Of a DNA stretch of 47,395 nucleotides, positions 40,198-47,395 are shown piece by piece (the stretch's first letter is position 1; each line of letters begins with the position of its first letter). Under the pieces are notes generated by a model that worked only from the letters and a program-made list of their open reading frames with translations, did not search any database and was not told the origin of the DNA. The position numbers and the translations under genes are program-made. Origin of the DNA: an uncultured Candidatus Saccharibacteria bacterium (GTDB lineage: Bacteria > Patescibacteriota > Minisyncoccia > Phycocordibacterales > UBA918); contig CAZVFY010000006.1 in the NCBI GenBank assembly GCA_964626635.1, forward strand, positions 1-47,395. Reading direction: 5' to 3'.

Positions 40198-41340
40198 ATG
40201 CAACCACGTACCCACGCTGCACTGCTCGAGTATGTTGATACGATTGATCCCATTGCGTACCAACGCACCCGCAACCACCACGATGGTGCTGTCACCAAAT
40301 TGTCCCCGTACATTACCCGCGGCGTCATTACCTTGCCCGAAATCCGCGACCAGCTACTATCACGGCACAGCCCTAAGTCAGCGTATAAATTGGTCCAAGA
40401 ACTCGCCTGGCGAGACTACTTTCAGTTGGTTTGGTGGGAGCGAGGTGATGCGATATTCTCTGATCTACGGTTTGCGCGACCTGACGCGTATGGCGAGGAG
40501 TGGGCGCACCATCAGTTAGTCAGTACGGTTATTGCTGGCAATACCGGTATTCAAGCCATTGACGCGGCGGTGCAGGATCTGTATCAGACAGGCTATATGC
40601 ACAATCATTTCCGAATGTTCGTCGCCAGCCTCGCGTGTAACCTCGCCCGCGCGCATTGGCTGCCGATGGGACAGTGGCTATATTACCATCTGCGCGATGG
40701 TGACCCCGCCAGTAATTTTCTGTCCTGGCAGTGGGTAGCCGGCGCCAGTATCAGCAAACGCTACACCATCAGCCAAAGTCTCATCAATAAGTTCTCTTCC
40801 GCCGAGGAACACCAAGCACATACCTACCTGAGTTTTGACCGTGATGACATGTGCCATATCGCGATACCCGCAGAGCTAACTGGCAGTGAACCAATGACGC
40901 TGACGACACCGTACGACAGAGTATCAATCGACCAGCTACCGGCGCTAGTCGGTCGGCCGGTCGAGCTGTACACGCCGTGGACACTGCGGCCGTTGAAAGA
41001 CGGGGCGGAGTCTGACGCGATCCGCGTACTGCTGATTGATCCAAAGTGGTTTGAGCGCTTGCCAGTATCAGCATCCGTGTTGTCATTTATTGTTGAGCAA
41101 GCGCGTGTCGCCTTGTCTGACGTTGTGGTTCATGTTGGTTCGGTGGCGGATCTTGACCTTGCGAGCGCAGCCAGCATTGCGGCCTGGCGACACCAAACAA
41201 ACCAGGGTGACTATGACTGGTCACATCAGTCAGACGCAACGGTTAATTGGCACGATTGGCCACGATTATTCCCGGCGGTGTCCAGGTATCACAAGTCGTT
41301 CTTTTCTTATTGGAAAGCGGTGGAGAAAGGTCTAAATTAG
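40198..41340 (+). CDS. Photolyase-like protein beginning with the FAD-binding domain (short/inverted-domain type)
   Basis: YQRTRN...VTKLSPYITRG, ELAWRDYF, TGIQAID, GYMHNHFRM, DGDPASN..SWQW, all within the first ~190 aa. Confidence 0.82.
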   Translation: MQPRTHAALLEYVDTIDPIAYQRTRNHHDGAVTKLSPYITRGVITLPEIRDQLLSRHSPKSAYKLVQELAWRDYFQLVWWERGDAIFSDLRFARPDAYGEEWAHHQLVSTVIAGNTGIQAIDAAVQDLYQTGYMHNHFRMFVASLACNLARAHWLPMGQWLYYHLRDGDPASNFLSWQWVAGASISKRYTISQSLINKFSSAEEHQAHTYLSFDRDDMCHIAIPAELTGSEPMTLTTPYDRVSIDQLPALVGRPVELYTPWTLRPLKDGAESDAIRVLLIDPKWFERLPVSASVLSFIVEQARVALSDVVVHVGSVADLDLASAASIAAWRHQTNQGDYDWSHQSDATVNWHDWPRLFPAVSRYHKSFFSYWKAVEKGLN

Positions 41341-41371
41341 AAACTAAGAATTAGCAAATGCTAATTTGAAT

Positions 41372-41453
41372 GTGGAATACTTTGTACCAAGTTAAAACCT
41401 CTTTGATTGAAATGGAGGCACCCAACTTTTTAAAGATTGTTGATTTGTGGTGA
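41372..41453 (+). repeat. Cassette boundary site A (core + right arm)
   Basis: GTGGA-N18-AAACC followed by TCTTTGATTGAAATGGAG...ATTGTTGATTT shared with site B. Confidence 0.7.
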
Positions 41454-41514
41454 TAGAAAGAGTACAGCAATTGTTACTCTCTTGGAGCTTGACGTCTCCT
41501 GTATAATTACAGTA

Positions 41515-42024
41515 ATGGAACATAAACATATTAAGGTTCACAATAAAGCAGGTACTATGGGTCACTCAATGAGTGATTTTTATCCACTTATCGGTATTTT
41601 GTCGGTTGTTGTCGCGTTGACTGCTTTAGGGGTGCACTATTTCACTCAAGATTGGGTGCTGGCCTTTATGGGCTATTTCTTCTTGATCTTCGGCTTGCTC
41701 AAAGTAATACGCATTCGTGGATTTGTTGAGGCGTATCAAATGTACGATCTGCTAGCGAAGCGGAGTAAGACATATGCCTACATCTATCCATTTCTCGAAG
41801 TTGGATTTGGTGTTGCTTACATTCTTGCGTGGCAAGTATCATTAGTTTCAGCTGTAGTAGTCCCTATTATGCTCATTGGTGCACTAGGGGTGTACCTGAA
41901 ACTGCGGGAAGGAGAAGAGATTCCTTGTGCATGTCTGGGGACGGTGTTCAAGGTGCCGATGACCTGGGTGACACTCGGTGAAGATTTGCTGATGGCAGGC
42001 ATGGCAGCAATGCTTTTGCTATAA
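41515..42024 (+). CDS. MauE/DoxX family membrane protein
   Basis: FMGYFFLIFGLLK, F...Y.MYDLLA, YPFLEV, IPCACLG, EDLLM. Confidence 0.8.
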   Translation: MEHKHIKVHNKAGTMGHSMSDFYPLIGILSVVVALTALGVHYFTQDWVLAFMGYFFLIFGLLKVIRIRGFVEAYQMYDLLAKRSKTYAYIYPFLEVGFGVAYILAWQVSLVSAVVVPIMLIGALGVYLKLREGEEIPCACLGTVFKVPMTWVTLGEDLLMAGMAAMLLL

Positions 42025-42032
42025 TTACCTGC

Positions 42033-42422
42033 ATGAAAGTCATCGCTAGCCTAATCCTCACTTTTCTTCTCGGTGCAATGTTCGTGAGTTTGTTCCATAT
42101 GTCGATGGGTATGGATATGACTGGTGGTATGACGGATTGCCCATTTATGATTCACGATGAAGTAATATGTTCAATGAACATCGCTGATCATATAGGGGCG
42201 TGGAAATCAGTGTTCCTGGCTGTTGCTCCAACCCTCGTTCTTCTGCTTGCTGTAGCAGGAGCTGTAGCGTTTGTTGCTTCAGTTGCACCACACCTTTTTG
42301 CGCTCAAGCGCAGGTTGATCCCAATATTGCATAAACAGTTACGAGAACGAACGTACGCTTTTTCATATCGACCACTTCAAGAACTGTTCTCCAGTGGTAT
42401 CCTTCATCCAAAACTGTTTTAG
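42033..42422 (+). CDS. Met/Cys/His-rich hypothetical membrane protein
   Basis: HMSMGMDMTGGMTDCPFM...CSM...HI..WK; ends FSSGILHPKLF. Confidence 0.65.
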   Translation: MKVIASLILTFLLGAMFVSLFHMSMGMDMTGGMTDCPFMIHDEVICSMNIADHIGAWKSVFLAVAPTLVLLLAVAGAVAFVASVAPHLFALKRRLIPILHKQLRERTYAFSYRPLQELFSSGILHPKLF

Positions 42423-42462
42423 TGAGCGCCGTCTCTACTTTATTCAATAACCAAAAATTAAA

Positions 42463-43119
42463 ATGAACAATCAAACTATTTTGGTAGCCATCATTGCTCT
42501 CCTTATCGGGGGTATCGGTGGCTACACTATTGCAGACAAAGGCAAAGCGTACGAACAACGAGGATATAACAAGGAAGCGTCAGAAAATATACCAATGGGT
42601 ATGCACCGTATGCCTGACGGCACCATGATGGGTGATGCTGATACTGGCATGGGAGGTATGGGTCAAATGGATCACATGATGGCGATGATGGTTTCCAGTG
42701 AGCGAGAGTTTATCGAAGGTATGATTCCTCATCATCAAGAAGCGGTAGACACAGCGATGGAGGTTATCGAGCGTGGTGGCACAACACCTGAAATCAAACA
42801 GCTTGTTGAAAACATTGTTGTTGCACAAGAAGCTGAAATAGCAGAAATGAAAAAGTGGTATGAGGACTGGTACGGGGAAGTGTATGTAGACAATGGTGAA
42901 TACACGCCGATGATGCGTGAGTTGGAAAATCTATCGGGAGCAGATATCGACCGAGTCTTTCTTGAAGATATGATTGGGCACCACATGGGAGCGATTATGA
43001 TGGCTCGCAGTGTTCAACCATATGTTGAGCACAATGAGATTGCAGAACTAACTCAAGCAATCGTCTCAACTCAGTCTGCAGAAATCGCACAGATGAGGCA
43101 AATGTTACAAGGTCTCTAG
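42463..43119 (+). CDS. DUF305 (CopM-like) Met/His-rich protein
   Basis: MHRMPDG.MM, FIEGMIPHHQEAV, FLEDMIGHHMGAI.MA, Q.AEI.QM. Confidence 0.88.
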   Translation: MNNQTILVAIIALLIGGIGGYTIADKGKAYEQRGYNKEASENIPMGMHRMPDGTMMGDADTGMGGMGQMDHMMAMMVSSEREFIEGMIPHHQEAVDTAMEVIERGGTTPEIKQLVENIVVAQEAEIAEMKKWYEDWYGEVYVDNGEYTPMMRELENLSGADIDRVFLEDMIGHHMGAIMMARSVQPYVEHNEIAELTQAIVSTQSAEIAQMRQMLQGL

Positions 43120-43140
43120 GGAATAAACTTGCTAGATATA

Positions 43141-43298
43141 CAAAAACCGCTTGAATAAGCGGTTTTTGTTTTGGAGCAGAACTTCCATATTCTTCTAAAT
43201 ATTTCCATGTCTGGTGGAGCAGTTTGCTGGAGGTAAGAACCTCTTTGATTGAAATGGAGTGTGCAAATTTCTTGAAAATTGTTGATTTATGGAAATGA
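43141..43298 (+). repeat. Cassette boundary site B (terminator + left arm + core + right arm)
   Basis: CAAAAACCGCTT..AAGCGGTTTTTG hairpin; ATTCTTCTAAATATTTCCATGT (43189-210); GTGGA-N18-GAACC (43214-41); right arm shared with site A. Confidence 0.7.
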
Positions 43299-43409
43299 TT
43301 CACTAGTACTTGACCTTCTGCTTGGTTGAGATCCTAAACTTTCAGGCGCTTAAGGCTAGGACTAGAAACTATATTCTGTGCTATTTTTGTTATGCTAGTA
43401 TTAATAGAT

Positions 43410-43628
43410 ATGGAAATCTTAAAAAAGATATTTTGGGACAAGCCAGAGTCACGTCTTGGTGTAGGAATACTAGTTGGTGCTGCTATTGGTATCGGTATGG
43501 ATAACATTGGTGCAGGAATTGCTATTGGAGTGGCAATCGGTGTCGCTATGTACACCACTAGGAAGAAAACAGAAAAAGAAAGTCCCTTGGACGAAGATGA
43601 GGTTCAAATTAACAACGATAAGGTATAA
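43410..43628 (+). CDS. Small glycine-zipper-like membrane protein
   Basis: GVGILVGAAIGIGMDNIGAGIAIGVAIG. Confidence 0.6.
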   Translation: MEILKKIFWDKPESRLGVGILVGAAIGIGMDNIGAGIAIGVAIGVAMYTTRKKTEKESPLDEDEVQINNDKV

Positions 43629-43636
43629 ATTTAAAT

Positions 43637-43762
43637 ATGGAAAACATCGTATACATTCTTAGTTGGGGTTCACCGCTTGGCATTGGACTCTTCTTGTTCT
43701 TGTTAGCCGCTGGCGCAGGTATCTTTTTTTGGGGAGTGTCTCATCTTAATCAAGATAAATAG
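43637..43762 (+). CDS. 41-aa membrane peptide (below the ORF-track cutoff)
   Basis: MENIVYILSWGSPLGIGLFLFLLAAGAGIFFWGVSHLNQDK*, tightly packed between its neighbours. Confidence 0.55.
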   Translation: MENIVYILSWGSPLGIGLFLFLLAAGAGIFFWGVSHLNQDK

Positions 43763-43764
43763 CT

Positions 43765-44688
43765 ATGCGAGCAGTGCTGGCTGATGATTACGGACCACCG
43801 GAAGTATTGCGTGTTGCGGAAGTTGCCAAGCCATCACCAAAGAAAAACGAGATTTTGATCAAGGTGAAAGCTGCGTCACTTAACTCAGCTGATGTGCGTA
43901 TTCGTGCGCTCGATAGCGGTGACGGCATAAAAGGTGTGCTGGCAAAGATTGTGTTGCGTCTTATGCTTGGCCTCCGAAAACCAAAGCAAATTCACGGTAG
44001 TGTGTTGGCTGGAGTAGTAGAAGAAGCAGGAAGCGAAACGACACGTTTTAAAGTTGGTGATGAAATATACGCTATGACTGGACTCAGCTTCGGTGCATTT
44101 GCAGACTATTGTGCGTTGTCAGATAAGCGAGCGATGGCGTTGAAACCAAAGACAGCGGGTTTCGAAGAAGCTAGTGCGTTACCGTTTGGCGGGAATACTG
44201 CTCTCTACTTCTAGCGTAAAGCTGGGGTGAGTGAAGGTAAGAAGGTTTTAATTTATGGTTCGACTGGAGCAGTCGGGTCGTCTGCCGTGCAGGTCGCAAA
44301 ATATCTCGGTGCTGAGGTAGTAGCGGTTAGTGGACCAGATGGCATGGAATTAACGAGAGAGTTAGGTGCGACAAAGGTGTACAACTACCGAGAAACTTTA
44401 CTAGAAGACATCGAAGGTGCGTTTGACGTGGTGTTTGATGCAGTTGGCAAGGCAACTAAATCTAAAGCAGAACATTTGCTCGCAGAGAATGGGCAATACA
44501 CAACTGTCGATAGTCTTGATGTATCGAAAGAAACTTCTTCAGACCTTGAAGAGCTGGCTCAGATGTATGACGAAGGTTCGTTGGTCGCTACTGTCGACAA
44601 AACTTTTGATCTTGATGAAATTGTGGAAGCAAGTCGATATGTAGATTCAGGAAGAAAGAAGGGGAGTGTAGTGATGCGTATTTCGTAG
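43765..44688 (+). pseudogene. NAD(P)-dependent MDR/quinone oxidoreductase interrupted by one in-frame TAG (44212-14)
   Basis: ORFs 43765..44214 and 44227..44688 are in the same frame; ...TALYF*RKAGVSEGKKVLIYGSTGAVG. Confidence 0.8.
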
Positions 44689-44702
44689 CCACAACAGTGT
44701 AG

Positions 44703-45062
44703 TTATTGCTTCACCGAATGCAACATCAAATCGTTGCCATCTGGATCAGTAAACAGCGCCATAAAACAGACAGGGTTCTCGATGGTTGGAGCTAGGAATT
44801 CTACCCCTCGTTCTTCCAGCTCTTTACGAGCGGCTTCAATATCATCTGTATGAAGGGCAATATGCGCACCTTTTTGCGGTGTAAATGACATGCCCATTTT
44901 CTCTGGTTCCCAAATCGCAAAACAAGTGTCGCCGACCCAAAATTCTGTCTCGGCTTTTTCATCTGGTCGCAGACCGAGGGTTTCCACATAAAATTTCCTC
45001 GAGCGTTCTACGTTTGTTGATGGTATTCCAATAAAGTCTAATTTTGTAATCTGATTTTTCAT
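44703..45062 (-). CDS. VOC/glyoxalase family protein
   Basis: RSRKFYVETLGL, DDIEAARKELEERGV, FTDPDGN. Confidence 0.85.
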   Translation of the reverse strand: MKNQITKLDFIGIPSTNVERSRKFYVETLGLRPDEKAETEFWVGDTCFAIWEPEKMGMSFTPQKGAHIALHTDDIEAARKELEERGVEFLAPTIENPVCFMALFTDPDGNDLMLHSVKQ

Positions 45063-45095
45063 AATATGTAAATTAAATGGCAATAAAGATATGTA

Positions 45096-45731
45096 CTAAT
45101 TCTTGCTAATATCTCGCGCGAGAGTAAAGAACCAGAGGATTTGACTAATTATAAAAATCCCGATTCCTATATCTGCGAGGTAGGGCAGGGCTGAGATAGT
45201 TCCTCCGATAAAAACCAATGTACCAAGGATGCTTGTAGCCATTCCACTAAAGCGTGCCTTGTACATCGCGAGACTTACAAGTCCGGTAAAGACTCCTCCC
45301 ATTAGTTCATTACCTCCACCAAGAGCATCGCCGATAATGTTGATTGACTGCCAGGCTGAGGCAAGCTCATTAGCAGCAGTTCCATTCATGAGAAGGGTGG
45401 TGACTGCCATGGAGATAAACCCGCTGGCAATAAGGATCGTTGCCCAGATCACACCGGTAATTAAACTAAGGAGGCCAAGAGCTGGTTGCTGATTCTTGAG
45501 TTTCAAATATAGATAGGTCGCAAGCAGAATAATTCCAAATGAGAATATAATATATATATGTAGCGTGGTGATGTGAACTAGGACGGAGTTGTTGCTAATA
45601 ATAGTAAGCTGTTCAGTGGCTGACGTTGCACTGTCGTACTTTAATAATCGTAGATATACGAATATACCGCCGATATAAGATAGTCCGCCGTATACCGCGC
45701 TTACGGCGGCGAATTTTTTGAAAAGTGTCAT
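45096..45731 (-). CDS. DUF4386-like multi-TM protein
   Basis: IWATILIASG, ALGGGNELMGG, QILWF. Confidence 0.6.
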   Translation of the reverse strand: MTLFKKFAAVSAVYGGLSYIGGIFVYLRLLKYDSATSATEQLTIISNNSVLVHITTLHIYIIFSFGIILLATYLYLKLKNQQPALGLLSLITGVIWATILIASGFISMAVTTLLMNGTAANELASAWQSINIIGDALGGGNELMGGVFTGLVSLAMYKARFSGMATSILGTLVFIGGTISALPYLADIGIGIFIISQILWFFTLARDISKN

Positions 45732-45750
45732 ATAAAAAGTATACCAAAAT

Positions 45751-45832
45751 AAAAAACCTACTCGAGAGTAAGTTTTTCATTCTTCTATATATTTCTATGT
45801 TTTTGTGGACATAGTGAGTAAAACTTTAAACC
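45751..45832 (+). repeat. Cassette boundary site C (hairpin + left arm + core)
   Basis: AAAAACCTACTC..GAGTAAGTTTTT hairpin; ATTCTTCTATATATTTCTATGT (45779-800, 20/22 match to site B); GTGGA-N18-AAACC (45805-32). Confidence 0.65.
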
Positions 45833-46014
45833 CACTAAAAACCTACTTGGAATCATTCTGGGAGTACTACAACGGTTCAGTTAAGCTACAAAATGTCCTT
45901 GCGGCGCAATAGTTTCATCAGGTTTTGTAGCCACAAGGTAAGTATTGAACCTTGTAGTAAAGATGTAACGCGCGTGACCATTGACATTTACTGCAATATG
46001 TGATACATATATGC

Positions 46015-46915
46015 AATCGCAAGAACGGAGCCAGACATGGAGCGATTATGAGTGAACAGTGCGGGGAGAGAAACGATCTCGGCACTGACACAAAACCTGA
46101 AAGTTGAGTCGCGAGCGCGACAACGCTGGAGGGACGATCGTGGAGGATAGGTATGCAAAAAGCCTCCGCGGTGACACCGCCCAACCCCCTTTAGCGAAGG
46201 ACTGGGGTAATGGGTAAAATGCAGAGAAGAAAAAAGGATGTCCTTTGGGTCGCTGCAGTCGTCCAACAACTACCGACACTGCACAGCATTGTGTTTGCAG
46301 CACGATGTATGACCTACTCGAGAGGTTTTGTCGCCTCGAGTGCAAACGCTGCGATGTGCTGCTTATGGAAGTAGTTACTTATACAAATAAGTGACGGAGG
46401 TAAGCAGTACTGACCGGAAGACAGGCAGTCTTCTTTCCCTGAGCTAGCTTGGGTTCTGAGGAGATTGAGGATGGTGTATCGCCCATCGCTCGCATCGGCA
46501 GATGTGAGAGTAGTCAGATTCTTGACACGGGAATCGGGCCAGGTAGCAGGATGCTAGGTGACGGCGAGTTTAGAGCGGTATGAACATGTGTTCAATCACT
46601 GTATGTATCCTCGACTGTTGCGACAACGCTGCGTTGGTATAAAGCGTGCATCGATAAGACCCAACCAAACTAAAGAGCGACAATCCCAAGCTCGTGTTCG
46701 AACAGGGATAGCTTCATGTCAATACGATCGACAGGGAAGTGCGGTTGCCAGCCACGTTAGTTAAAAAACTGCTGGATACTCCAGGGTGAGCCCCTGGCGG
46801 AAGGAACGCCCTTTCGTTATCAAGACAGTACATATAAAATGCGCCCGCCGTGGGGCTACCACACGGATAACCCAACCCCTCAAGTAACAGTTAGGCTGAC
46901 TTGAGGGGTTTTTAT
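46015..46915 (+). ncRNA. Candidate large (~0.9 kb) highly structured non-coding RNA (GOLLD size class; family unassigned)
   Basis: No credible ORF; TTGACA at 45981; about 20 local helices with G-U pairs favouring the + strand; long-range complementarities; terminator at 46874-46913. Confidence 0.7.
46874..46913 (+). terminator. Intrinsic terminator
   Basis: AACCCCTCAAGT / ACTTGAGGGGTT perfect 12-bp stem plus TTT. Confidence 0.8.
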
Positions 46916-46919
46916 AAGA

Positions 46920-46948
46920 TTGACATATAGTCATTTATATGCTACTCT
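46920..46948 (+). promoter_or_regulatory. Sigma70-like promoter of ppdK
   Basis: TTGACA-17-TACTCT with TG extension. Confidence 0.6.
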
Positions 46949-47013
46949 ATGTTTAGAAAGTGGGTTCCTTGAAAACTCATGAATCAAACCAATCAAACAA
47001 ATAGGAGGGTTCG

Positions 47014-47395
47014 ATGCTCGCAGCATCTACTCAGGGTCGTTCGCGCACCGTGGCCAAGATGGGTCACAATGCGCGTCGACGGCTAATCGTCCCGACGTGG
47101 GGCGATCTTGGCACCACCTCCTACACGCTGGGAGGAAAGGGTCACGGGATCACTCGACTGGCGGCGCTCGGTTTGCCGACGCCGCCAGCGCTCGTGATCT
47201 CGACATCGCTCTGCCGAAGCTACCAGGAGACCGGTCAGTTCCCCAAGCGGTTCAACACCCAGCTTGAGCGCGAACTTAAAGCGCTCGAGCATAAGACCGG
47301 GAAACGCTTCGGCGACCCGGACAATCCGCTCCTCGTGTCGGTGCGTTCCGGGGCCATGATCTCCATGCCGGGGATGATGGAAACGGTGCTGAATG
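47014..47395 (+). CDS. ppdK: Pyruvate phosphate dikinase, N-terminal part (runs off the window)
   Basis: AGGAGG SD; LGGKG, GLPTPP, GKRFGDPDNPLLVSVRSGAMISMPGMMETVLN. Confidence 0.88.
   Translation, partial: MLAASTQGRSRTVAKMGHNARRRLIVPTWGDLGTTSYTLGGKGHGITRLAALGLPTPPALVISTSLCRSYQETGQFPKRFNTQLERELKALEHKTGKRFGDPDNPLLVSVRSGAMISMPGMMETVLN

Follow-up and report, generated by a model that had tools for sequence, protein, structure and literature searches.

Probable junctions of serine recombinase-borne elements at the tmRNA gene of a small patescibacterial genome

We analysed a stretch of 47,395 nucleotides from an uncultured Candidatus Saccharibacteria bacterium (Patescibacteriota), hereafter called the window, which is an entire contig (CAZVFY010000006.1, here C6) of a genome assembly of 841 kb in 17 contigs (GCA_964626635.1). 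Near its right end, three short sites, A, B and C, delimit a tandem array of gene cassettes. In all likelihood these sites are attR-type junctions, each composed of a host arm, a GTGGA core and an element arm, of elements that a large serine recombinase (LSR) inserts at the extreme 3′ end of ssrA, the tmRNA gene. The attachment site of such an element, attP, would lie inside the 3′ end of the recombinase gene itself, so that integration would sever the last codons of that gene: seven in type I elements (sites A and B) and 35 in type II elements (site C). The severed codons would stay at the far end of the element, while the remaining recombinase gene would read antisense into ssrA.

The motif GTGGA-N18-RAACC, searched on both strands, matches the window three times, at 41372-41399 (A), 43214-43241 (B) and 45805-45832 (C), always on the + strand. 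Shuffled versions of the window contain 0.22 matches on average, and three matches were reached in 1 of 100 shuffles. A sequence-only reading of this DNA had placed three identically spaced sites here, and these positions are indeed the only ones in the window at which the motif occurs. It had also noticed a right arm common to A and B; this arm is real, but its length is 79 nt, ungapped (41372-41450 versus 43214-43292, 75% identity), and not about 55 nt. We refer to it as the type I unit. A left arm common to B and C likewise stands (22 nt, 43189-43210 versus 45779-45800, 91% identity), and a hairpin precedes each copy as had been read, but the hairpins of B and C are unlike each other. The array is AT-richer than the DNA immediately to its left, with a G+C content of about 0.37-0.48 across 41200-46000 versus 0.49-0.57.

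The search for further copies that this reading had suggested succeeded in relatives but not in the genome itself, where it found no copy of the arms beyond the window and tblastn of the unit returned A and B only. A 9-kb query retrieved an arm of about 80 nt at 80-86% identity, in several copies per genome, from genomes of the same genus. With an 82-nt query, the unit was found in 58 of the 128 genomes of the genus, and a profile of the unit identified about 113 copies in 60 same-genus stretches (the window included), in arrays of one to five and in a single orientation per stretch. Site C gives no match to this profile. A pattern scan of one genome per species (185,579 species) yielded 42 loci, labelled as metagenome-assembled genomes of Patescibacteria, the Candidate Phyla Radiation (CPR).

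Reverse-complementing the core GTGGA gives the acceptor end of ssrA, TCCAC(CA), and in relatives ssrA adjoins the arrays, with smpB beside it (ARAGORN, Rfam). tmRNA matches are present in 120 of the 128 genomes of the genus. The unit and ssrA share a contig in 38 of the 58 unit-bearing genomes; there, units without exception occupy the strand opposite to ssrA, beyond its 3′ end, and the nearest one is 352-6985 nt distant. The remaining 20 genomes have the two on separate contigs or lack a tmRNA match. Metagenome contigs contributed 78 loci with 134 units. At 14 of these loci the tmRNA gene lies inside the fetched stretch, and all 14 share the same layout, at distances of 407-1247 nt. The window itself contains no tRNA or tmRNA detectable by ARAGORN, and Rfam at gathering threshold reports nothing there. 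The unit has just 5-7 nt, GTGGA(G/A), in common with ssrA, plus an outer RAACC displaced by 5 nt, and it does not match the Rfam tmRNA models at E-values up to 10. The unit was also considered as a known RNA and rejected as such: at E ≤ 10, Rfam returned only terminator-like chance matches on site B.

The host side of the junctions was identified from their left arms. When the 80 nt that precede the units are compared with the 80 nt that precede reverse-complemented ssrA, both sets sort into the same few families, D1-D4, and conservation begins sharply at GTGGA irrespective of the sequence on its left. D1, the left-arm type at B and C of the window, consists of a hairpin followed by ACTTCCATATTCTTCTATATATTTCCATGTCTG, and D2 and D3 are other terminator-bearing flanks. 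A D1-type arm stands immediately after ssrA in about 10 genomes. Twenty unit-less genomes were examined and the core was located in 18, with D3 in eight, D1 clearly in one and D2 in one. Since D1-D3 flank ssrA in unit-less genomes too, they are native 3′ flanks of ssrA. On the host side, attB combines the acceptor end of ssrA, ...CCATCTCCAC (ssrA strand), with its terminator-bearing 3′ flank. Arms of D1, D2 and D3 occur together in a single array (L044), which argues that the arms arrived with cassettes and were not duplicated in place.

Within the window, the left arm of B (43137-43213, +) comprises a terminator hairpin (43144-43169) and then the D1-type arm AACTTCCATATTCTTCTAAATATTTCCATGTCTG, which is the reverse complement of a native ssrA 3′ flank. 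The left arm of C (45745-45804, +) is again a hairpin followed by a D1-type arm, ATTCTTCTATATATTTCTATGT. The left partner of site A (41300-41371, +) includes the hairpin AATTAGCAAATGCTAATT as well as the end of a photolyase-like gene, and it closes with AT, two bases that form an ATG with the G of the core. It probably represents the 3′ flank that ssrA had ancestrally in this lineage, a B-type arm. The anatomy of these junctions and their link to ssrA are direct observations.

Some ssrA 3′ flanks have a further peculiarity. In many genomes (for example D3 in L128, L131, L135 and L143; also L014, L018 and L028), the sequence beyond the terminator imitates the ssrA 3′ end in inverted orientation. 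This mimic consists of a T-arm-like hairpin with a different stem and then CCATCTCCAC on the other strand, so that a long palindrome with the real end is formed around the terminator. Eight of the 18 unit-less genomes with a located core have this mimic. Two tmRNA genes (L057 2253-2653 and L061 242-694) were assigned the tags VTTSPTTTSVLLSSHREESGVIA and VVYDSQAL by ARAGORN, each ending at a stop, in place of the usual A.K..PSPYANAFGFAPA.A; these are probably mis-called tag frames.

The recombinase was found at the ssrA-proximal end of related arrays. In genome G081, an open reading frame (ORF) of 544 aa with Resolvase and Zn_ribbon_recom domains (L053:8522-10156) crosses a D4 arm and the core and then continues for 68 nt into ssrA, on the other strand; its catalytic domain matches the TP901-1 integrase. 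Since this frame runs through D4 into the core and ssrA, D4 is the recombinase's own 3′ end, that is, the P arm. At ssrA the frame reads ...TNSQD/VEMGGIEPPSE... (slash at the core) up to its stop. Homologues that overlap ssrA in the same way are present in G110 (40% identical), in G097 (split into two ORFs) and in G136 (cut by a contig end). The window's own genome encodes the last 35 LSR residues at 69% identity on another contig (C4:9-113), overlapping its own ssrA (C4:49-466). The overlap is thus seen in five genomes, and 12 of 13 public homologues end in ...DVEM..E..SE, the antisense of ssrA, the 13th being a partial protein. The sequence-only reading had favoured a recombinase-less, integron-like mechanism while pointing to a recombinase gene overlapping the motif as something to look for; the gene exists, and the mechanism has to be given up. 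Its statement that the cassettes encode no integrase was correct, as a Pfam scan detected no recombinase in the window, including cassettes 1 and 2.

The genome contains two further large serine recombinase genes, at C4:23001-24194 and C3:2373-2810 (452 and 443 aa). The former is 22% identical to the ssrA-linked family and the latter was found solely by its Resolvase domain; contig C3 begins with the 3′ half of a tRNA. In the three LSR-bearing elements scanned with Pfam, no second Resolvase-domain gene, ParB or Mom was detected.

The beginning of the unit is explained by the recombinase frame. G081 also contains a remnant of a recombinase C-terminus (120 aa, 37% identical) that reads ...TNSQDVEDFAPS and a stop through a D4 arm into a unit, and hence the first 24 nt of the unit correspond to the last seven codons and the stop of the recombinase in its excised form. 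Site A follows this pattern, with VEYFVPS and a TAA stop in frame 1. N18 is therefore coding sequence, namely the last LSR codons, and not a spacer. Among 73 units with an aligned 5′ end, which were compared with 39 ssrA ends, 60 start with GTGGA, and 48 have a frame-1 stop at codon 8 (TAA 30, TAG 17, TGA 1). RAACC starts at nt 24 in 44 of these 73 units versus nt 19 in 35 of the 39 ssrA ends. For serine integrases, the outer (zinc-ribbon) motif is described, in the part of PMC3783163 on which we draw, as lying 5 bp nearer the centre in attB than in attP. The 5-nt shift between unit and ssrA fits this offset, which identifies GTGGA-N18-RAACC as a P′ half-site with RAACC as its putative outer recognition motif, placed 5 nt further out than in ssrA. 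The earlier remark that the minus strand resembles a tRNA 3′ end expanded by 5 nt has thus been borne out, the core being the ssrA acceptor end.

At site A, the element-side half-site P′ occupies 41372-41399 (+), with the core GTGGA at 41372-41376 and the outer motif AAACC at 41395-41399, and the type I P′ arm of 79 nt, delimited by the A/B arm comparison and the unit profile, extends over 41372-41450 (+). Unit B (43214-43292, +, 79 nt) has its core at 43214-43218; its frame 1 reads VEQFAGGKNLFD before a stop, the usual stop having been lost.

Site C joins a D1 arm and GTGGA to an arm unlike the A/B unit. This type II P′ arm (45805-45912, +) has its core at 45805-45809 and AAACC at 45828-45832, and its frame 1 encodes a 35-aa recombinase tail, VDIVSKTLNPLKTYLESFWEYYNGSVKLQNVLAAQ followed by a stop, which would be readable only on the excised form. 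Arms homologous to C follow host-type flanks in L071, L137 and L078, with RAACC at nt 24-28, and the type II tails are conserved at the protein level in four loci. In G110, a type II arm (L078 360) and an LSR gene with ssrA (L078 11316) bound an 11-kb element whose cargo includes an MmeI-type restriction-modification gene and a SocA/Panacea gene. The homologous arms and the layout of this element indicate that C is the far end of a type II element with a 35-aa tail. The view that cassettes begin with the right arm and end with the left arm holds for the modules described below; on the right side of C, a second type of arm starts another, larger element.

The start of this type II element occupies the remainder of the window (45913-47395, +): 1.1 kb without an ORF or Rfam match, and then the 5′ part of a PPDK_N-family gene (47014 to the contig end). 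The element that begins at C probably continues as far as the LSR fragment and ssrA with which C4 starts, although C6 and C4 are not joined in the assembly. The right end of the window and the start of C4 have no end-to-end overlaps with other contigs. The segment 45913-47013 has no ORF longer than 100 aa and no Rfam match, and apart from the type II arm nothing homologous to the right side of C was found in the fetched relatives; at E ≤ 1, three weak chance matches were all that Rfam returned for 45700-47200. The sample holds several variants of 45913-47013 at 90-95% identity, and the assembly is fragmented there.

Sequencing data place alternative partners at the cores. Nine runs contain the stretch wholly or partly, and no RNA run was listed as containing it, which carries no information on expression. 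We used the four runs with at least 94% of its sampled words and compared them with 40800-47395; these four runs represent one sample, probably the genome's source, and the comparison concerns contigs, not raw reads. At 41370, contigs of three runs enter from ...TTCACGAGTTTGTGTCTACAAACTCCCATG, which is C4 19-48, the recombinase end, and thereby join the P arm through ATGTGGA to unit A. At 45809, a contig of one run continues as GATGGGGGGAGTTGAACCCCCGTC, the genome's own ssrA, and so joins arm C through the core to ssrA. At 43219, one run has the left arm of B joined to an ssrA variant that differs at four positions. All three cores thus occur with other partners, as the sequence-only reading had anticipated for excision or empty sites. 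The empty site it had predicted, the left of A joined to the right of C, takes another form: a left arm joined to the ssrA 3′ end, which lies on C4, and such a joint is present in the contig linking arm C to the genome's own ssrA. Like the overlap of the recombinase gene with ssrA, these junctions at the cores are observed, and their coexistence in one natural population suggests ongoing activity.

One more joint connects 45756 to the earlier position 43180 through 19 intervening letters of different sequence; a circle, a tandem copy or the gene order of another strain could each have produced it. The first 55 nt of C4 are 50 nt of recombinase end plus GTGGA, and two contig pairs overlap by exactly 55 nt, which makes an assembler branch at the core probable. 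At the opposite end of the window, positions 1-55 match the final 55 nt of contig C16 in reverse complement, pointing to either an inverted repeat or a graph node shared there. In all four runs, summed contig depth is about 1.3-fold higher over the array than over its left flank; contig depth cannot be taken as a copy number.

The cassettes behave as modules. Each module has the order right arm, cargo, left arm. In other genomes, such modules are found again with 85-92% identity, at different places in the array, and homology ends exactly at the core. This agrees with the earlier interpretation of the sites as recombination junctions that bound modular cassettes. Window positions 41372-42211 (844 nt; unit A and the first part of the cargo) are 92% identical to G014 (L013), whereas the flanking histidine kinase gene is only about 70% identical between the same two genomes. 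A module with an HxlR-family regulator and a 127-aa ORF ends in the same hairpin and D1 arm in three genomes and is succeeded by ssrA, a type II arm and a type I unit in one genome each, the homology stopping at GTGGA. In G004, the glyoxalase gene alone forms a cassette between two units (L014 7670-7939). Cassettes range from 0.6 to 4 kb, and the orientation of the cargo is mixed within arrays.

From these observations a course of events can be proposed. The order in the window would be the ancestral flank left of A, cassette 1, cassette 2 and the start of the type II element. Cassettes 1 and 2 would each consist of a P′ arm, cargo and the ssrA flank of a donor, and would most likely have moved by accretion: the LSR would recombine the ssrA junction (attL) with a distal attR and so excise a composite circle, and after integration elsewhere the LSR element would exit alone, leaving the cassettes behind. 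A host-type flank could have entered a module when DNA from a strain with an unoccupied site replaced the recombinase-proximal end, the exchange being anchored by homology. This order of events, like the mobilisation of single cassettes in trans, is something we infer from the arrangement of arms and cargo.

Several points weigh against this reading. Conservative site-specific recombination alone does not account for a host-type arm within a mobile module, and canonical serine integrases do not recombine attR with attB, which leaves the mobilisation of single cassettes unproven. Neither reciprocal junction (left of A with ssrA; recombinase end with the type II arm) appears in the list of loose ends from the sample contigs; this is not evidence of absence, since contigs drop rare variants. 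The link between C6 and C4 is one contig from one run, and all four runs represent one sample seen through contigs only. The junction of the recombinase end with unit A could reflect a co-existing strain and not an excised circle, and the contig joining arm B to the variant ssrA, whose aligned length is not displayed, may be only the native flank of a related strain. As to the recombinase, the genome's own assembly holds only the last 48 LSR codons, at a contig end; none of the 12 public LSR homologues with a C-terminus has an intact excised-form tail; no LSR adjoins any of the 134 units in the 78 metagenome loci and viral contigs gave no matches; and most arrays lack a nearby recombinase, which was found at only three loci among 226 ORFs scanned around arrays.

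The scarcity of recombinase genes, at three loci around the arrays and beside none of the metagenome units, would suit an alternative in which the sites are dead relics, scars of decayed recombinase-bearing elements whose cassettes are immobile and are shared by descent with loss or by homologous recombination after DNA uptake. In-frame stops mark some units as degenerate, a gene of the alcohol dehydrogenase (ADH) family in cassette 2 contains a stop, and the 79-nt units and the arms of 60-100 nt offer enough homology for recombination. We nevertheless consider this alternative improbable. Alternative partners occur exactly at the three cores in one population, and the homology of shared modules ends at GTGGA, not within the arms. 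The 844 nt from the start of unit A are far more similar to the closest relative than the flanking kinase gene is, and three arm types stand in one array. Junctions of LSR-borne elements at ssrA remain the explanation that we prefer.

A second alternative starts from the rest of the unit. Beyond the recombinase stop, the unit is conserved as a peptide, ...KTSLIEMEC.NFLK(I/V)VDLW and a stop, in a second frame (ORF2). At A, ORF2 encodes 27 aa (41370-41453, +; MWNTLYQVKTSLIEMEAPNFLKIVDLW, then a stop) in a frame other than that of the recombinase tail, which it overlaps; in unit B this frame is open, reads WSSLLEVRTSLIEMECANFLKIVDLWK and a stop, and ends at 43298, the start codon being absent at junction B. 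Phenylalanine is written TTT 50 and TTC 49 times, one leucine by five codons and one serine as TCT 67 and AGT 13 times. Synonymous changes make up 54% of the differing codon pairs in the ORF2 frame versus 20% and 6% in the other + frames (76 distinct copies; the pairs are non-independent). On this codon evidence, ORF2 appears to be under strong purifying selection. A long variant of the unit has 51 extra nt (17 aa) in the ORF2 frame, and a profile search of 1.84 billion proteins gave 33 ORF2 matches, all of 34-141 aa.

Selection on the ORF2 frame, its varied leucine and serine codons and the uniformly short public matches would all be expected if the unit were simply a multi-copy gene for a peptide of 27-61 aa with its upstream region, the likeness of GTGGA to ssrA being incidental. 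This we regard as very improbable, given that ATG (11), TTG (9) or GTG (2) is supplied as an ORF2 start at just 22 of the 73 integrated junctions, that conservation sets in sharply at GTGGA whatever stands to the left, that units are found only downstream of ssrA, that the recombinase frame enters the unit and stops at a conserved position, and that junction variants occur at the core. Less probable still is an integron-like or tyrosine-integrase system, in which attC-like sites or displaced ssrA 3′ fragments would be served by a tyrosine recombinase encoded elsewhere: tandem, mostly co-oriented sites around small cassettes, the tmRNA gene as a classic tyrosine-integrase target (as PMC4383910 describes it in the part consulted) and the one tyrosine recombinase gene of the genome (C1:23478-23987) would agree with it, but no attC-like hairpin spans sites A and B when folded as single-stranded DNA on both strands (z −0.85 to −1.34, in keeping with the earlier judgement that they do not resemble attC), the unit is not a tmRNA fragment, having no Rfam tmRNA match and only the few core bases in common with ssrA, no Phage_integrase domain occurs in the window or among the 226 ORFs around arrays, and the gene that physically overlaps the site encodes a serine recombinase.

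The unit was also considered as the 3′ end of a long host gene; this was rejected, as no longer protein contains its words and only short matches were found. The 51-nt piece (...DLVFNDWKEYKNGNTLV...) is absent, single or repeated in tandem up to four times, always in the ORF2 frame; its carriers include units of L015 (7057), L024, L017, L030, L042 and others, and the public proteins P0003, P0011, P0015 and P0018.

If the units are P′ arms of elements inserted at ssrA, ORF2 allows a bolder proposal, which we consider doubtful: recombinase and site would form a built-in state switch for ssrA-anchored cassette exchange, in which the native recombinase tail (7 or 35 aa) exists only on the circle, an ssrA-antisense tail replaces it once the element is integrated, and ORF2 is specific to the circle. 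The ORF2 start codon is composed of the two bases before the core and the G of the core, and all six recombinase-side arms seen end in AT. Because the recombinase-side arm would thus supply an ATG that integrated junctions provide only in part (22 of 73 starts), ORF2 would be made only from the circle. Judged from a weak likeness (KTL...EY.NG, with the same spacing), ORF2 could represent a type II tail that has become separate, and it may steer the direction of recombination, a role that we would likewise only infer.

The cargo of the two cassettes was assigned with Pfam. Cassette 1 encodes a MauE-family membrane protein (41515-42024, +), a 129-aa membrane protein to which the scan assigned no family (42033-42422, +) and a DUF305 protein (42463-43119, +). 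Cassette 2 begins with two small membrane ORFs (43392-43628 and 43637-43762, both +), followed by a Zn-dependent ADH/quinone-oxidoreductase gene (43765-44688, +), a glyoxalase gene (44703-45083, −) and a DUF4386 gene (45096-45731, −). The ADH-family gene has an in-frame TAG at 44212-44214, where it reads ...TALYF, stop, RKAGVSEGKKVLIYG..., and the sample contigs show no variant letter there; either the gene has become a pseudogene or the stop is bypassed by readthrough.

In other genomes, the DNA that separates ssrA from its nearest unit often contains defence or addiction genes (L054 3833-7718, L062 1121-4942, L078 552-3311 and L053 3105-6918). These include Thoeris ThsA/ThsB with a C5 methylase and a LlaMI-type nuclease, an AbiEii-like ATPase with an HNH protein, an MmeI-type enzyme and an HTH/Gp49 pair. 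Just past the last unit of the closest relative's array lies an ORF with an RVT_1 domain (L013 50-880, G014:C18), which could be part of a group II intron or of a retron.

To our knowledge, the mobile elements of Patescibacteria (CPR) are barely described. The arrays bear on how genomes of about 0.8 Mb acquire stress, metal, defence and toxin-antitoxin genes: in one genus, a single hot spot at the tmRNA gene would have small modules stacked and exchanged by a serine recombinase. They also provide a clean natural attB/attP pair in which the 5-nt offset is legible from sequence. If the state switch were true, the recombinase tail and a tiny overlapping ORF would vary with the integration state, and together with the modules this would give these ultra-small bacteria a recombinase-driven cassette exchange at ssrA. 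A full-text literature search gave, at the level of titles and abstract openings, no account of such islands in Patescibacteria.

Among known systems, integrons and clusters of attC sites without an integrase resemble the present arrays in their rows of small cassettes, their conserved bounding site and the frequent lack of an adjacent recombinase. The present arrays differ from integrons in having no attC hairpin and no IntI, in the mixed orientation of their cargo and in being anchored at ssrA. In archaea, integrases of the SSV type have their site inside the integrase gene, which is split by integration. The partitioning of the gene and the piece left at the other end of the element are the same here. 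However, SSV-type integrases are tyrosine recombinases from which a large part is removed, with inactivation as the result, whereas here only the last 7 or 35 codons are swapped for an ssrA-antisense tail.

Staphylococcal cassette chromosome (SCC) elements, moved by CcrAB or CcrC, use a protein gene (rlmH/orfX) as target, have a recombinase gene that does not span the site and are much larger than the elements described here. They share with the present system large serine recombinases, the 3′ end of one essential gene as target and tandem composites, and for their recombinase-less cassettes, which identical repeats bound, movement in trans or jointly with neighbouring elements is presumed (in part after the description in PMC3146451). 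Tyrosine-integrase islands of the Islander type, as far as the description in PMC4383910 extends, have the same target gene, tandem arrays and a far-end repeat. In those islands, however, the repeat is a genuine piece of the target gene, and integration depends on a tyrosine recombinase; in the present arrays, the far arm is no piece of the tmRNA gene and the recombinase is of the serine type. The portion of the same source that we cite states that serine recombinases are not known to target tRNA or tmRNA genes.

The closest precedent is provided by the ssrA islands of Dehalococcoides with the serine recombinase DsiB (McMurdie et al. 2011, PMC3146451), where such systems have already been described; the comparison follows those portions of that paper that set out the islands. 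[quoted passage not shown] About half of the Dehalococcoides islands lack integration genes, and the authors proposed accretion with neighbours; recombinase-less cassettes are found here too. There are also differences. The host belongs to another phylum, the Patescibacteria (CPR), with genomes of about 0.8 Mb, and no DsiA, ParB or Mom module is present in the three elements scanned here. The repeat in Dehalococcoides is 20 bp of ssrA, whereas the shared core here is 5-7 nt with a shifted outer motif. The cassettes here measure 0.6-4 kb, each with a copy of a host-type ssrA flank, and the far arm encodes a severed recombinase tail and a second conserved ORF. The targeting of ssrA by serine recombinases now extends past Dehalococcoides.

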